A DNA stretch of 7,523 nucleotides, from IMG/VR virus record IMGVR_UViG_2609460344_000014, positions 1 to 7,523 of that record; one strand, given 5' to 3'. The notes under the pieces were generated by a model, which ran no database searches, was not told the origin of the DNA, and worked only from the letters and a program-made list of their open reading frames with translations. Positions 2,270 through 7,523 of the stretch are shown one piece after another. Every line of letters starts with the position of its first letter. The first letter of the stretch is position 1. The stretch is from a virus. Its lineage: Duplodnaviria > Heunggongvirae > Uroviricota > Caudoviricetes. The position numbers were made by a program, and so were the translations under genes.

Positions 2270-2452
2270 ATGACATTTTTACAGCTGATTATGTTGTATT
2301 TCTGTACAGCAGTTTGTGTGCTGTATCTTCTTTCTGGTGGGTACAGAGTCGTGAGAGATTTCTGGCGCAGACAGATTGACAAAAGGGCCGCTGAGAAAAT
2401 CAGCGCCAGTCAGTCAGCCGGAACAAAACCCGAAGAGTCTCTCATTCCGTAG
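2270..2452 (+). CDS. Small single-pass membrane protein, 60 aa, unknown function
   Basis: ATG 2270 preceded by GGAG (2259-2262, 7-nt spacing). N-terminal hydrophobic helix (FLQLIMLYFCTAVCVLYLLSGG) followed by a basic tail. Same strand as flanking late genes. Confidence 0.45.
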   Translation: MTFLQLIMLYFCTAVCVLYLLSGGYRVVRDFWRRQIDKRAAEKISASQSAGTKPEESLIP

Positions 2453-2489
2453 CAACTTTCTTAACAACACCTTTCAACGAGAAAATACC

Positions 2490-2759
2490 ATGTCAGAAAT
2501 AAAATCGCTGGTCACTGCTGAAGCAGTGAAGGAAGTCCTGCGCTCTGAAGAAGTCAGAAGCGCACTGAAACAGCAACTTCGTCAGAATCTTGAGGCGCGT
2601 CTTGATGCTGAAGTGGATGCCATTCTGGATGAACTGCTGGGGGTACCGGCTGCTCCCGGGCCTGAAGACGGTGCGGGTGACAGTGCTGTTTCAGATGGTG
2701 TCGTGTCTCAGCCTGATGGTGGCAGTGAGCCTCAGCCTGACGGCGAAATGATGATGTAA
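2490..2759 (+). CDS. Hypothetical protein, 89 aa, helical N-terminus and acidic Gly/Pro/Asp-rich C-terminus
   Basis: Track ORF 2376-2759 overlaps the preceding ORF; the internal ATG 2490 (MSEIKSLVTAEAV...) gives a non-overlapping gene. Weak SD. Function not recognisable from sequence. Confidence 0.5.
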   Translation: MSEIKSLVTAEAVKEVLRSEEVRSALKQQLRQNLEARLDAEVDAILDELLGVPAAPGPEDGAGDSAVSDGVVSQPDGGSEPQPDGEMMM

Positions 2760-2834
2760 CCATGCGCAGGGGCTGTCGGTGTGAGCTGATGCCCCTCTTG
2801 TTGTTGTGAGCTTCCGGATTGCGGGAGACGGGGT

Positions 2835-3050
2835 ATGTACCAGATGGAAAAAATCACAACAGGTGTGTCATACACCACGTCAGCGGTGGGAACGGGCTAC
2901 TGGTTCCTGCAGTTGCTGGACAGGGTTTCCCCGTCTCAGTGGGCGGCAATAGGCGTGCTGGGGAGTCTGCTGTTTGGTCTGTTGACGTACCTGACGAACC
3001 TGTATTTCAAAATCAGAGAGGACCGTCGTAAGGCGGCACGGGGAGAGTAG
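2835..3050 (+). CDS. S: Class II holin, phage 21 S-type pinholin (71 aa) with dual-start motif
   Basis: Translation [71 protein letters not shown] closely matches S21-type holins as recalled. Two in-frame starts (ATG 2835 and ATG 2844, Met1/Met4) give the antiholin/holin pair. Two TMDs and a charged C-terminus. GGAG upstream. Confidence 0.9.
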
Positions 3051-3053
3051 GTG

Positions 3054-3134
3054 ATGAACCATGAAGAAATGAATCAGCGCTTCAGTCGTCTGGAAAATGA
3101 AATTGCTGAACTGAATAAAAACTGTCGGCGCTGA
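3054..3134 (+). CDS. Tiny ORF, 26 aa (MNHEEMNQRFSRLENEIAELNKNCRR), possibly a leader or coupling ORF or the detached N-terminus of the next gene
   Basis: Starts 4 nt after the holin stop, with GTG 3051 as an alternative start and GGGGAGAG upstream. Its TGA (3132-3134) overlaps the ATG (3134-3136) of the following 158-aa ORF, which has no SD of its own. Too short for the ORF track. Confidence 0.25.
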   Translation: MNHEEMNQRFSRLENEIAELNKNCRR

Positions 3135-3610
3135 TGCCTTCTGAAGATGAAAAAAAACGCCGCGATGAGCAGTTTGCTGCGTTTGACGATTATTGTCGGA
3201 AAGTGATGAGCAGAAATCTCGCAGAGTGTTTCAGTATTCATAATGATAATTTCAGTGAGCTGGAATGGGAGTGTAACCGGCCATCCTTTGTTGTATCCGG
3301 TGATGCTGGGAAAATAACCATCTCAGAAAATGGGAAAGTAACACCTCCATCGCACCAGCACAGTGAGGAGCTCATTGAATTTGCCATTGATTACCTGAAG
3401 AACAATAAAAAGCAGGGGCTGATGAAGCGCGTTGGCCGTTGCATGGGATATCTTCAGGTAGCCGCTGAGATTGAAGCGCTGGCCAGTGGTGCTGATAAGG
3501 ATGCAATTGTGCGGGAGGCTCTTCTTCGTGATTTTAATACTCCACCCTTTAAAAAAGTGCCGGCTTACTGGCTTCATCCGGGGCTGACTTATCTTAAAGT
3601 GCGTATTTAG
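3134..3610 (+). CDS. Hypothetical protein, 158 aa, inserted between holin and endolysin (candidate moron)
   Basis: Uninterrupted 158-aa ORF on the late-gene strand between S and R. No TM segment, no recognisable catalytic motif. Looks AT-richer by eye than S and R (not computed). Start coupled to the upstream tiny ORF through a TGATG overlap. Confidence 0.6.
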   Translation: MPSEDEKKRRDEQFAAFDDYCRKVMSRNLAECFSIHNDNFSELEWECNRPSFVVSGDAGKITISENGKVTPPSHQHSEELIEFAIDYLKNNKKQGLMKRVGRCMGYLQVAAEIEALASGADKDAIVREALLRDFNTPPFKKVPAYWLHPGLTYLKVRI

Positions 3611-3646
3611 TGGGCCAGGGACAGCGGCTGAATATTTAATATATCC

Positions 3647-4180
3647 ATGAACACCAAAATCAAATACGGCCTGTCGGCTGCCGTTCTGGCGCTGATTGCC
3701 GCTGGTGCGCCTGCGCCTGACATTCTCGACCAGTTTCTGGATGAAAAGGAAGGTAACCACACCACGGCATACCGTGATGGCGCGGGTATCTGGACCATCT
3801 GTCGCGGTGCCATTCTGGTGGATGGTAAACCTGTCGTCCCGGGCATGAAGTTGTCGAAGGAGAAATGCGACCAGGTTAACGCCATCGAACGTGATAAGGC
3901 GCTGGCATGGGTGGAGAAAAACATCAAAGTGCCATTGACCGAACCCCAGAAAGCGGGGATCGCGTCATTCTGTCCGTACAACATTGGTCCCGGTAAGTGT
4001 TTCCCGTCGACGTTTTACAGACGAATTAATGCTGGTGATCGCAGGGGAGCATGTGAGGCGATTCGCTGGTGGATTAAGGACGGTGGCAGAGACTGCCGTA
4101 TTCGTTCAAACAACTGCTACGGTCAGGTATCCCGTCGTGACCAGGAGAGCGCGCTGGCGTGCTGGGGTATCGACAGATAA
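3647..4180 (+). CDS. R: SAR endolysin, T4-lysozyme-like (GH24) muramidase, 177 aa
   Basis: N-terminal weakly hydrophobic Gly/Ala-rich signal-anchor-release segment (LSAAVLALIAAGAPA) followed by an E...D...T catalytic triad spacing (EGNHTTAYRDGAGIWT). Pairing with a pinholin is the expected arrangement. No obvious SD before ATG 3647. Confidence 0.9.
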   Translation: MNTKIKYGLSAAVLALIAAGAPAPDILDQFLDEKEGNHTTAYRDGAGIWTICRGAILVDGKPVVPGMKLSKEKCDQVNAIERDKALAWVEKNIKVPLTEPQKAGIASFCPYNIGPGKCFPSTFYRRINAGDRRGACEAIRWWIKDGGRDCRIRSNNCYGQVSRRDQESALACWGIDR

Positions 4181-4269
4181 GCAGAATATTTTGCTGAAAA
4201 ATAAGGCATGGCCACGCGGGCGGATAACATGAAATCCTGCGAACTGGCGAAACGTAAGTGAATAAAAGT

Positions 4270-4308
4270 AAAAACCCCGTTTGTTGGCAGCAAGCGGGGT
4301 TTTGTTTT
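4270..4308. terminator. Rho-independent-type hairpin (aaaaCCCCG, 15-nt loop, CGGGGtttt, then gttttt), potentially bidirectional
   Basis: GC stem CCCCG/CGGGG (4274-4278 / 4294-4298) extended by A:U pairs, followed by a T-run on the + strand. The complementary strand also has T-rich sequence after the stem. Lies about 90 nt downstream of the R stop. Confidence 0.5.
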
Positions 4309-4374
4309 TATGGCAGTAAGCTATGGGAGGCTGCCTTGATTGATTTTAGCAAACTGATTAGGGAGTTGCGACTC

Positions 4375-4470
4375 ATGATTAGTCAATTACCAAACTGGAA
4401 ATTTTTGCTGGTCTGGAGCATCCCTTTTTTATGGGTAGTATCCCAGTTAATTGTGGCAATTAAGGGGTAG
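4375..4470 (+). CDS. Small hydrophobic peptide, 31 aa (MISQLPNWKFLLVWSIPFLWVVSQLIVAIKG)
   Basis: ATG 4375 with AGGGAG (4360-4365) upstream. Predicted single TM helix. First of four back-to-back tiny ORFs between R and Rz. Confidence 0.35.
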   Translation: MISQLPNWKFLLVWSIPFLWVVSQLIVAIKG

Positions 4471-4472
4471 CT

Positions 4473-4604
4473 ATGTCAGACAAACTCATAACGCCGGCAA
4501 AGGTCCTGTGTGTGATTGTCGGTATTTCATTTTCACTAATGCTGGTTGCTCTTTTTCTGTCCCTCGCCTGGGTGATGTTGTCTTCGTCGGGGCTGCTGGG
4601 GTGA
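4473..4604 (+). CDS. Small hydrophobic peptide, 43 aa (MSDKLITPAKVLCVIVGISFSLMLVALFLSLAWVMLSSSGLLG)
   Basis: ATG 4473 with AAGGGG (4462-4467) at 5-nt spacing. Begins 2 nt after the previous ORF's stop. Single predicted TM helix. Confidence 0.4.
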   Translation: MSDKLITPAKVLCVIVGISFSLMLVALFLSLAWVMLSSSGLLG

Positions 4605-4606
4605 CA

Positions 4607-4723
4607 GTGACTGATGACATCAGCAGAGCGCTGGCTTTTGCTATTAAGTGGGTGGCTGTTGGTATTGCTGTGTCTCCGATGCTGTATGGGCTGGCTAAAC
4701 TGGTCATTGCGCTGAAATCGTGA
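4607..4723 (+). CDS. Small hydrophobic peptide, 38 aa (GTG start; ..TDDISRALAFAIKWVAVGIAVSPMLYGLAKLVIALKS), possible paralogue of the next ORF
   Basis: GTG 4607 (alternative GTG 4601 overlaps the upstream TGA). Codon-by-codon alignment with ORF 4735-4821 shows a shared AFAI(K/R)xVA core with synonymous third-position differences (gct/gca, gct/gcc, gtg/gtc). Start and frame are uncertain because other frames here are also hydrophobic. Confidence 0.3.
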   Translation: MTDDISRALAFAIKWVAVGIAVSPMLYGLAKLVIALKS

Positions 4724-4734
4724 ACTTTAAAAAG

Positions 4735-4821
4735 ATGAGTGCTGAACTTATTCGGGCAATGGCATTTGCCATTCGTATTGTGGCCATTGCTGTTCTGGTC
4801 TGGGCAATCCGTTGGTGGTGA
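4735..4821 (+). CDS. Small hydrophobic peptide, 28 aa ([28 protein letters not shown])
   Basis: ATG 4735. Stop TGA 4819-4821 lies 1 nt before the Rz ATG (4823) and overlaps the Rz SD (GGTGGTG). Resembles the preceding ORF at peptide level. Confidence 0.3.
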
Positions 4822-4822
4822 T

Positions 4823-5290
4823 ATGAACCGTGTTCTGTGTGTGGTGATTATTGTCCTGCTGGTAGCCTGTGGTGTGCTTAGTCTGGGGCTGAATCATTAC
4901 CGCGATAACGCCATCACCTACAAAGCGCAGCGCGATAAAAAAGTCAGTGAGCTGAAACTGGCGAATGCCACTATTACTGATATGCAGCAGCGCCAGCGCG
5001 ATGTTGCTGCGCTCGATGCAAAATACTCGAGGGAATTAGCCGATGCGAGAGCTGAAAATGAAACTCTGCGTGCTGATGTTGCCGCTGGTCGTAAGCGCCT
5101 GCGGGTCAACGCCACCTGCCCCGGTACCGTGCGTGAAGCCACCGGCACCTCCAGCGTGGATAATGCAACCGGCCCCCGACTGGCAGACACCGCTGAACGG
5201 GATTATTTCATCCTCAGAGAACGGTTGATGACAATGCAGAAGCAGCTGGAAGGGGCGCAGGAATATATCCGCACTCAGTGCCTGAAATAA
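4823..5290 (+). CDS. Rz: Rz i-spanin (inner-membrane spanin subunit), 155 aa
   Basis: Translation from ATG 4823 ([39 protein letters not shown]...[30 protein letters not shown]) is near-colinear with lambda Rz as recalled: N-terminal TMD plus coiled-coil periplasmic domain. The track ORF at 4739 is a GTG-extended version. Confidence 0.9.
5043..5228 (+). CDS. Rz1: Rz1 o-spanin lipoprotein, embedded in +1 frame within Rz
   Basis: 61-aa ORF wholly inside Rz. Signal peptide with lipobox (LPLVVSAC) and proline-rich mature part ([35 protein letters not shown]), matching lambda Rz1 as recalled. ATG 5058 is an alternative start. Confidence 0.85.
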
Positions 5291-5332: not shown

Positions 5333-6237
<905 letters not shown>

Positions 6238-6244
6238 GGAGGTC

Positions 6245-6853
6245 ATGGTGGATAAGGGAAAAGAGATTATTGCAGTACGAAATGCAGCCTGCAACGAATA
6301 CGGCGGGATAAACTGTGAGGTGCAGTTTGAAGATGCGGTCAATGAAAAAGGAGAGCAGGTATGGCTGCCGTATACCGCAACGGAAACGGATAATACAGAA
6401 CACGGAAAAGCCTTGTGGTCGGGGCTGACAGCAGGAACATACGGAAGTGTGAGTGCCTTTGTTGCCACGGAAGCAATACTGGAAGCGGCAAAGGCGGCGA
6501 AAAGGGAAGAGATTAATATCTGGCGTGATGTGCAGGAGAATATGGAATACGTGATGGAATTCAACGGAAGGAACTGGGATTACGGCAAGAAGACGTTGTC
6601 CAGGATAAGCACGACACGACTGATGGCAGAGAACAACCGTCTTCCGGAAGGGTTTGCCTGGACGGACGGGGATAATAATGTGGTGCCGGTAACGGCGGCG
6701 GAGATAATTGCGCTGGCAGATGCGACAGAGCAGGCGATGTTTGCGAAAGGTGTGGAGATTAATACACGTCAGCTTCAGATGAAAGCAGAGGTTGAGGCGC
6801 TGACAGAGCTGAAGGCGATCCGCAGTTATGTTGTCGGATGGCCTGCAAGCTGA
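6245..6853 (+). CDS. Probable tail-fibre assembly (chaperone-like) protein, 202 aa
   Basis: Begins 8 nt after the tail-fibre stop, with GAGGAGG (6236-6242) overlapping that stop; GTG 6248 is an alternative start. Position immediately 3' of a tail-fibre gene and size are typical of tfa genes. Family assignment is from context and general resemblance, not a search. Confidence 0.5.
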   Translation: MVDKGKEIIAVRNAACNEYGGINCEVQFEDAVNEKGEQVWLPYTATETDNTEHGKALWSGLTAGTYGSVSAFVATEAILEAAKAAKREEINIWRDVQENMEYVMEFNGRNWDYGKKTLSRISTTRLMAENNRLPEGFAWTDGDNNVVPVTAAEIIALADATEQAMFAKGVEINTRQLQMKAEVEALTELKAIRSYVVGWPAS

Positions 6854-6855
6854 GT

Positions 6856-6884
6856 AAAAAAAACGGGACCACGGCCAGTCCCGG
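6856..6884 (-). terminator. Hairpin (CGGGAC, 8-nt loop, GTCCCG) flanked by an A8 tract: canonical intrinsic terminator for minus-strand transcription, possibly bidirectional
   Basis: Stem 6864-6869 / 6878-6883. On the minus strand the hairpin is followed directly by UUUUUUUU (complement of 6856-6863). On the + strand a T-run (6894-6899) follows after about 10 nt. Sits between the convergent tfa-like gene and ykgJ-like gene. Confidence 0.5.
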
Positions 6885-6997
6885 AACCATGAGTTTTTTA
6901 GGGTATTAGTTTGTTATCATAATTAGCGTGCTAAGTATGCCGTATCAGGCTGATTAGTGAAGTGATGTTGTTCGCATTTTTGCACGGCGGAGAATAT

Positions 6998-7327
6998 TCA
7001 GATTTTGGGAAATCCATATTTTTCCCGTGCGCGGTTACATGCTTCATTCGCGATGCCATTTTCGCCGGACATTGCGAATTCCCTGCATGTGGACGGACGG
7101 TTTTTGTAAACAGAGCAATATGCGTTTTCACCGGGGGGGCCGGCCAGAGCGACACATCGGGGATTTTTCTGATTGGTGCCGCGCATACAGCGATGAAAAG
7201 GAGATATTTGCTCAGTGAGACTGACCGGGACGTTTCCGCCAGCATCATCGGCTTCAGCCCAGTAAAAAGAGACGCGGAAAAATGCACAACAGGCACCACA
7301 CGTCATGCATGGATTCGGATTGTTCAT
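6998..7327 (-). CDS. ykgJ: YkgJ-family cysteine-cluster protein (putative zinc/iron-chelating CxxCxxCC domain), 109 aa
   Basis: Minus-strand ORF; start at the internal Met ([28 protein letters not shown]...) gives 109 aa with the CMTCGACC motif, matching E. coli YkgJ in length and motif as recalled. The track ORF extends to 7384 ([19 protein letters not shown]... extension), but that upstream ATG has GGAG only 1 nt away. Confidence 0.75.
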
Positions 7328-7425
7328 TTTTATACTATTTGTTGTTTTTTCAGCGATCAGATAAAAGGGCGCTGAAAAAAACATTCTCCAAAATTAGATT
7401 ATAACTATTTGATTTTATGGATAGA

Positions 7426-7459
7426 GGCATGCTTTTTACGAAAAAGTAAAAAGCATGCC
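7426..7459. repeat. Perfect 12-bp inverted repeat (GGCATGCTTTTT, 10-nt spacer, AAAAAGCATGCC)
   Basis: Exact reverse-complement arms at 7426-7437 and 7448-7459, in the region upstream of the minus-strand ykgJ-like gene. Function is not determinable from sequence: hairpin, protein-binding site or terminator for a gene beyond the window. Confidence 0.5.
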
Positions 7460-7523
7460 AAATTTGCCATTAACTCTTTGAATATTCAGCACTAATCATC
7501 TATTTCGGTTGCCTTCTTATTCA

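Follow-up and report, generated by a model that had tools for sequence, protein, structure and literature searches.

Gene content of the window and of the S-R interval

The window, the whole stretch of 7,523 nucleotides that was analysed, contains 7.5 kb of late-region DNA from a lambdoid E. coli prophage of the Stx type. A NanS-p-like sialate esterase with DUF1737, SASA and DUF6645 domains (178-2121) is followed by a DUF1378 protein (2270-2452) and a DUF826 protein (ending at 2759). The S gene (2835-3050, plus strand) encodes a phage-21-type class II holin, or pinholin, of 71 amino acids with dual starts at Met1 and Met4 (PF04971, E 9e-33). The R gene (3647-4180, plus strand) encodes an endolysin of the phage lysozyme type with 177 amino acids (PF00959, E 1.4e-24), and its N-terminus reads as a SAR-like hydrophobic segment rich in Gly and Ala. 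Rz extends to 5290 with Rz1 embedded (5043-5228). No RNA families were found in the window with Rfam.

A tail-fibre fragment without a start, containing 8.9 copies of a 45-bp collagen-like repeat (5566-5966), comes directly after Rz. It is followed by a DUF4376 gene (6245-6853) and, on the opposite strand, a host CxxCxxCC gene (6998-7384). Because this succession leads from Rz to host DNA with no packaging or head genes 3' of Rz in the window, the prophage is a deletion remnant; most tail genes are also missing from it. The same host junction is found in a related assembly (GCA_000249675.2, locus L004), which is 99.8% identical to the window over 6247-7523 and has an additional deletion that takes out most of R and Rz.

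Between S and R lie 596 bp (3051-3646), here called the slot, with two ORFs on the plus strand. The ORF starting at ATG 3054 has 26 codons and a TGA stop (3054-3134); a start at GTG 3051 would give 27 amino acids. The second ORF encodes 158 amino acids (3134-3610), and its ATG (3134-3136) has the A at 3134 in common with the stop at 3132-3134, in the sequence TGATG. The ATG at 3054 is placed 4 nt past the S stop and its Shine-Dalgarno (SD) sequence, GGGGAGAG, is read within the 3' end of S (3040-3047). Ahead of R there is an AT-rich spacer of 36 nt (3611-3646, plus strand) without any SD-like sequence, where some relatives have extra cargo. No GGAG-like sequence is present within 15 nt 5' of the R start (...AATATTTAATATATCC-ATG).

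No promoter-like site was found within 2300-4400 of the window, which together with the SD sequence inside S indicates that the slot gene is expressed from the late transcript with S and R. Only one terminator-like match was found in the vicinity, a weak one of 7 pairs (3 of them G-C) within the ORF at 3569-3586. With the reading frame restored as described below, the gene has a GC content of 45.2% and a GC3 of 43.5%, compared with 54.6% and 69.4% for S and 54.9% and 61.2% for R.

The initial annotation had described a segment of about 600 bp, AT-richer than S and R, with the overlapping ORF pair, a 158-aa protein without recognisable motif and an R gene lacking an obvious SD sequence. All of these were recovered, and the 158-aa protein matches no Pfam family. 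Its comparison of the position with that of a moron holds in part: the composition does differ, but the segment has no promoter-like site of its own and only the weak terminator-like match inside the ORF.

The A5 allele and the frameshift

In E. coli O157 FDAARGOS_293 and ST866, which represent the nearest complete genomes, exactly this slot is filled by a single ORF of 558 bp encoding 185 amino acids, which RefSeq lists as a hypothetical protein (WP_001015158.1 and WP_062891728.1, respectively). Alignment with the intact 185-aa ORFs (loci L002 and L003) places the whole slot gene at 3054-3610 on the plus strand, as a copy of the 185-aa short form of PHROG 1085 with a -1 frameshift. In a three-way DNA alignment one A is gone in the window from a run of six (AATAAAAAACTG to AATAAAAACTG), and this alignment and the run lengths across loci locate the site to 3117-3121 (plus strand), with A5 in the window and A6 in intact alleles. 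The reading frame changes after codon 22, giving NCRR and then the stop at 3132-3134. The upstream fragment (3054-3134) thus has 22 codons of the native N-terminal helix followed by four out-of-frame codons (23-26), and the 158-aa fragment (3134-3610), which starts at the internal Met28, takes in the second helix of the predicted hairpin as well as the linker and, at the C-terminus, the domain of about 105 amino acids described below. The restored window protein differs from that of ST866 in one residue and from that of O157 in eight.

The pair of ORFs arises wholly from the chance overlap of the shifted stop with Met28. The window gene has no intact frame, the stop at 3132-3134 interrupting the match to full-length homologues. 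The suggestion in the initial annotation that the 26-aa ORF might be a severed N-terminus is thereby confirmed, since the alignment with FDAARGOS_293 and ST866 shows the 185-aa ORF minus one A. The unexplained module of two ORFs that it also proposed is instead a regular and widely annotated resident of the slot (PHROG 1085, the long forms being called "YdfR family protein"), and homologous phages identify the window copy as a known gene in degraded form.

The A5 allele is also found at four other loci in at least three other assemblies, and records of other assemblies contain the identical 158-aa ORF. Two of these loci, L004 and L005 (GCA_907175995.1), have a block of S plus the slot gene that is 100% identical to the window, with an overall identity of only about 91% further upstream of S. 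The remaining two (L078 and L079) are IMG/VR contigs from one genome, each with one SNP in the S-gene-R block and an overall divergence of about 1-5%; in both, the tblastn match breaks at residue 22/23. Taken together the S-gene-R blocks of the five A5 loci are 0-1 SNP apart and the flanks about 1-9% apart, and no second lesion is present in the A5 allele at any of them. The allele is rare: it was absent from all 231 complete E. coli genomes with this N-terminal segment and present at only two of the 83 further loci, which comprise 80 IMG/VR contigs and three species-representative genomes.

Since the same allele recurs in several assemblies with differing flanks, it is considered inherited and not a read error. 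The A would most simply have been lost from the A6 run through replication slippage. The interval 3051-3646 is thus very probably one 185-aa slot gene that is frameshifted here, likely a recent pseudogene in a decayed prophage. The copy in the window is best read as a recent pseudogene because an inherited mutation is found inside a prophage already without packaging genes, head genes and most tail genes.

A decidedly unlikely alternative is that the split is tolerated, termination at UGA being followed by reinitiation at AUG in the sequence UGAUG to give a functional, N-terminally truncated variant of 158 amino acids without the first helix. Stop and start do have one base in common, the conserved domain lies entirely inside the 158-aa ORF, and A5 is found at five loci without a second disabling mutation. 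The five loci are, however, near-identical, which suggests that the allele is young, and the absence of further decay therefore says little. There is also no SD sequence ahead of Met28, every other short-form copy examined has kept the N-terminal helix, and the host prophage is itself defective. It is extremely unlikely that the gene is intact in the real genome and that the lesion is a homopolymer error of sequencing or assembly: a length change of one nucleotide in a homopolymer would fit, as would a similar A8-to-A9 change in complete long-read assemblies of relatives, but the identical A5 at four other loci, in at least three other assemblies and with differing flanks, led to the rejection of this explanation.

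The A8-to-A9 change concerns a second slippage-prone tract, which is intact in the window (3150-3157, plus strand). A9, a +1 frameshift, is found in three complete genomes (OkiPb01678, OkiPb01712 and RM13322) on two allelic backgrounds, and all three copies are marked as frameshifted by PGAP. Among other relatives, L027 has a 35-bp deletion in the slot gene and in L028 the long form is split. The slot gene is thus lost now and then, mostly at homopolymers, but the great majority of copies are intact. Rescue of the window copy by transcriptional slippage was considered and rejected by sequence reasoning, as the stop at 3132 lies upstream of A8 and A5 is too short.

Distribution, domain structure and conservation of the family

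A profile search with the family gave the 83 further loci mentioned above, and the gene is placed between S and R at every one of them for which both neighbours were in view. The lengths of the slot are discrete, with 597/603 bp (the 185-aa form), 698, 931 (the 296-aa form), 1015, 1029-1031 and 1232 bp, and its content is highly variable. In the K-12 prophage Qin the gene order is essQ-ydfR-rrrQ-rzpQ, with ydfR in the slot, whereas in DLP12 essD abuts rrrD and the slot is empty. Lambda and phage 21 are not known to have a gene between S and R. The empty slot of DLP12 together with the wide variation in slot content indicates that the slot gene is dispensable for lysis. Of 5,426 complete E. coli genomes, 884 contain DNA of the gene and 660 of these have at least 80% of it. 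The initial annotation had regarded the interval as an odd insertion between genes that are normally adjacent; the occupied slot in Qin and the presence in 884 of 5,426 genomes do not agree with this.

Hundreds of homologues were found, and E. coli, Shigella and Salmonella enterica are the sources of the named relatives. When 1.84 billion cluster representatives were searched exhaustively with HMMER, only 43 relatives emerged, and the C-terminal domain is encoded in only 5 of 50,697 deposited phage records, one of them the Stx2-converting phage 86. The Salmonella homologues are located in the late region, just upstream of holins of the HP1 type or the lambda S type, and a metagenomic relative is found two genes upstream of a P21-type holin. 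The holin types adjoining the Salmonella homologues led to the rejection of a strict tie to pinholin/SAR lysis. Some relatives have a convergent partner gene of 105 amino acids (phrog_1853), which is kept even by homologues of about 30% identity; it is missing in the window and in most loci.

The PHROG 1085 HMM matched the intact O157 form with E 2.9e-111 and the 158-aa ORF of the window with E 9.8e-104 to 1e-104, the match spanning profile positions 117-296. The homologues of 287-296 amino acids, annotated as "YdfR family" or "DUF1327 domain-containing", have PF07041 at the N-terminus followed by the whole 185-aa sequence, which makes up their C-terminal two-thirds (83-91% identity over 98% of the query). 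PF07041 matched neither of the two window ORFs (26/27 and 158 amino acids) nor the intact 185-aa form, even when E values up to 10 were allowed. The Salmonella proteins have 225-338 amino acids with a divergent DUF1327 as N-terminal domain (hhalign probability 80%, E 1.5e-5). One phage contig (L077) has the 185-aa gene and, next after it, a stand-alone ORF of 75 amino acids for DUF1327 (35.4 bits against a gathering threshold of 25). The 185-aa module and DUF1327 thus exist as a fusion, as separate genes or singly. There are also relatives with a replaced C-terminal domain or a disrupted gene.

The segment 3168-3646 (plus strand) is 100% identical to the 3' end of a 296-aa DUF1327-containing allele in FDAARGOS_1298 (L010), compared with 99.2-99.6% for a spread sample of other complete genomes. 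The identity to this long allele shows that the alleles are mosaics, with a junction near 3168.

Because the defining DUF1327 domain is lacking, the name YdfR is unsuitable; the window gene is the non-DUF1327 part of the YdfR family and should not be named YdfR. The gene is already catalogued, though uncharacterised, with intact near-identical copies in RefSeq and sister alleles flagged as frameshifted by PGAP. The intact 296-aa form is labelled partial YdfR by NCBI PGAP, which leaves the conserved C-terminal domain unannotated.

AF2 modelling on an alignment of 44 sequences, Salmonella included, gave a mean pLDDT of 68.5; with only 18 close homologues the pLDDT was 50, too low for use. The model has a hairpin of two helices (residues 3-27 and 31-59, with pLDDT 77-95 over residues 1-40), a disordered linker (60-78) and, in residues 79-184, a three-stranded sheet followed by four helices. 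The core of this last part (about 75-150) has values of about 68-89 and the last 25 residues are poorly modelled. We infer that the intact protein begins with a helical hairpin, which a flexible linker connects to a conserved alpha/beta domain of about 105 amino acids at the C-terminus. It is predicted to be soluble and cytoplasmic, as no hydrophobic segment or signal sequence was seen by eye. The conserved positions are concentrated towards the C-terminus (F79, G86, H103, I112, L115, F161, P164-P-F-K167, W173 and P176-G, as well as the stretch G128-R-x-M-G-x-L-Q-x-A-A-E-I-E).

Scans of the 185-aa protein and its relatives against Pfam, NCBIfam and PADLOC gave only sub-threshold coiled-coil noise, and a sequence-profile search of the PDB gave nothing below E 0.6. 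Foldseek searches with the AF2 model against viral structures (BFVD) and the PDB gave nothing with E below 0.2; since the model is only moderate, the lack of a fold match is weak evidence.

Purifying selection acts on the intact alleles. The dN/dS was 0.25 when 26 distinct intact alleles were pooled and 0.23 in the C-terminal domain, and the restored window gene compared with the O157 allele gave 0.17. The pooled value and the hundreds of homologues together show that the coding signal is real and not due to chance.

Possible functions and comparison with known systems

The product of the slot gene probably does not belong to the holin-endolysin-spanin machinery. When intact it would be made with the late, Q-dependent lysis transcript. 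A search of full-text literature on ydfR, DUF1327 and Stx lysis cassettes found only one paper that bears on the gene, on an interaction with RNase E, and the accessible parts of two Stx-phage surveys make no mention of a gene between S and R. In that paper, residues 1-72 of YdfR bind the catalytic N-terminal half of RNase E in BACTH and pull-down experiments, YdfR co-purifies with RNA, and few transcripts are changed upon overproduction of YdfR (PMC13232886).

The favoured reading, put forward tentatively, is that the family may be a late accessory factor that would act with DUF1327 on host RNA turnover or the fate of late mRNA. The proposal builds on the 185-aa module being repeatedly fused to DUF1327 or encoded beside it. 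The window protein itself is without DUF1327, however, and its link to RNase E is one of guilt by domain fusion. Moreover the RNase E interaction is known from a single study, in which overproduction of YdfR barely altered the transcriptome (PMC13232886), and the strict placement beside holins, in Salmonella too, fits a lysis-related role equally well.

It is unlikely that the gene is moron-type cargo of the late region with a function in anti-defence, defence or superinfection exclusion, possibly together with the convergent phrog_1853 partner. The GC content about 10 points below the neighbours is in line with such an origin, as are the modular and mosaic nature of the family, the retention of the partner in homologues of only about 30% identity and the presence of other cargo, a Tad2-like gene among it, in the same lysis region. 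On the other hand, the short, 213-aa, 296-aa and Salmonella forms matched none of the families in PADLOC-DB v2, no promoter-like site adjoins the gene, and the partner is missing from the window and most loci.

A role of the intact protein as a cytoplasmic regulator of lysis timing is unlikely. It might for example bind the tail of the pinholin or delay release of the SAR endolysin, in a manner similar to T4 RIII. At all E. coli loci examined the gene is found between S and R and is translationally coupled to S, the Salmonella and metagenomic homologues adjoin or just precede holin genes, and an N-terminal helical hairpin is predicted, all of which would suit a regulator of this kind. Against this, three different holin families (P21 type, HP1 type and lambda S type) are associated with the gene, DLP12 does without it, as do phage 21 and lambda, and certain relatives have a replaced C-terminal domain or a disrupted gene. 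There is also no similarity to known antiholins or lysis regulators: no likeness to S21-71, lambda S107, T4 RI/RIII or P1 LydB was found in sequence, fold or transmembrane/SAR segment.

Returning to RNA turnover, a more specific form of the proposal, quite unlikely as it stands, is that in E. coli and Salmonella the family links the lysis cassette of lambdoid and Stx phages to the decay of host RNA, for instance by serving RNase E as an adaptor or by inhibiting it. The factor would consist of the hairpin and the new C-terminal domain of about 105 amino acids, fused to or beside DUF1327 and in some lineages accompanied by the convergent phrog_1853, and it would protect or time the late, lysis (and stx) transcripts. 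The window copy would then be a naturally inactivated allele of this system.

The locus in the window matters little in itself, since the copy is broken and the prophage defective. The family, however, belongs to the lysis cassette of many prophages of pathogenic E. coli, where it is part of the late operon and lies downstream of stx, and the carriers include O157:H7, O104:H4 and extraintestinal pathogenic (ExPEC) strains. The family is notable for the combination of purifying selection, no recognisable fold and a domain fusion to an RNase E-binding domain. It would make a small but sensible experimental target, and its conserved C-terminal domain merits a family model of its own.

Among known systems, T4 RIII is a cytoplasmic cofactor of lysis inhibition. 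It resembles the slot protein by analogy only, both being small, soluble, helical phage proteins expressed with the lysis genes, but no similarity in sequence or fold was detected and the holin type is different. YdfR of K-12 (b1555, cryptic prophage Qin) is found in the same slot, with the class II holin gene essQ on one side and the lysozyme gene rrrQ on the other. It consists of DUF1327 and a short tail only, with no C-terminal domain, whereas the window gene has no DUF1327; the tail has a weak likeness to the middle segment of the 217-aa forms. The PHROG 1085 profile differs from the window gene by about 116 extra N-terminal positions, corresponding to DUF1327, and by the frameshift in the window copy. 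The closest counterparts, WP_001015158.1 and WP_062891728.1, represent the same gene in the same slot and of the same length, and are intact with A6 where the window has A5.

The convergent gene beside the slot gene

Some E. coli prophages, O104:H4 among them, carry a convergent gene of about 105 amino acids on the opposite strand, directly 3' of the slot gene. It belongs to phrog_1853, which is of unknown function, and a Pfam search gave no match. Among the relative loci compared with the window (L-numbers) the gene is found on the minus strand at L022:585-902, L026:1273-1587, L029:436-759, L031:495-812, L033:2503-2817 and L034:2503-2859. It is present in about 95 complete E. coli genomes and absent from the window. 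Because it is also paired with three metagenomic slot-gene homologues of only about 30% identity, the slot gene and the phrog_1853 gene are suggested to form a conserved two-gene unit.

Altered alleles of the slot gene

In place of its C-terminal domain, the slot gene of the Stx2a phage Stx2_14040 and of the Stx1a phage Stx1_14040 has a 233-aa ORF on the reverse strand (L015:2738-3439 and L016:2682-3383), and the forward slot ORF runs on into the antisense of this ORF. The 233-aa ORF is unannotated in the deposited records and gave no match in Pfam, PHROG or PADLOC searches. The A8 run of the window (3150-3157) is A9, a +1 frameshift, in three complete genomes (loci L001 and L023). These represent two different allelic backgrounds; the A9 allele has therefore arisen more than once, by either slippage or homopolymer assembly error. 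In principle, some in-frame mRNA could be regained from the A9 alleles by transcriptional slippage, which does not hold for the window allele.

Cargo and decay around the lysis genes

In the window's gap of about 560 bp between R and Rz (4181-4738) there is a strong hairpin resembling a terminator, with 15 pairs and a T run behind them (4271-4303). Several short ORFs for hydrophobic products also lie in the gap, one of them of 43 aa (4473-4604). Hypothetical proteins of 28-51 aa are annotated in the corresponding gap of relatives, and the gap is a second cargo slot within the lysis cassette. In prophages L017, L018 and L019, where the S-R slot holds a 333-aa YdfR-family gene, a Tad2-like gene (PF11195, anti-Thoeris family; L017:5592-6113) lies shortly after Rz. 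The lysis region therefore hosts anti-defence cargo. A predicted pertussis-toxin-S1/ArtA-like ADP-ribosyltransferase (L020:1710-2519; weak Pfam matches) is located in the same late region of a Salmonella diarizonae prophage with a family member.

The window region 5333-6234 is a tail-fibre fragment without a start, including a 45-bp tandem repeat in 8.9 copies (5566-5966) that encodes collagen-like GXY triplets. This fragment abuts Rz directly, and the prophage has thus lost the packaging, head and most tail genes.

DUF1327 and the arrangement of modules

The first part of the long form is annotated by PGAP as 'YdfR family protein, incomplete, missing C-terminus', and the remainder carries no annotation (L010:4553-5443, L028:375-710 and L033:1687-2022). 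The 296-aa ORF of L010 is intact, contrary to this label. The label seems to be an artefact of annotating with a model that derives from the 103-aa K-12 protein. K-12 YdfR (L009:4055-4366, minus strand) consists of DUF1327 and a tail with weak similarity (12 of 26 residues identical, E 0.001) to the central segment of the 217-aa forms, lacks the C-terminal domain and looks like a naturally truncated member of the family. In one IMG/VR phage contig (L077) the S-R slot contains, in order, an intact 185-aa gene, a stand-alone 75-aa DUF1327 ORF (L077:3586-3813, plus strand) and a 116-aa reverse ORF, all three within the slot. The 185-aa gene and the DUF1327 ORF carry the two modules of the fused 296-aa proteins, here as separate genes and with their order reversed.
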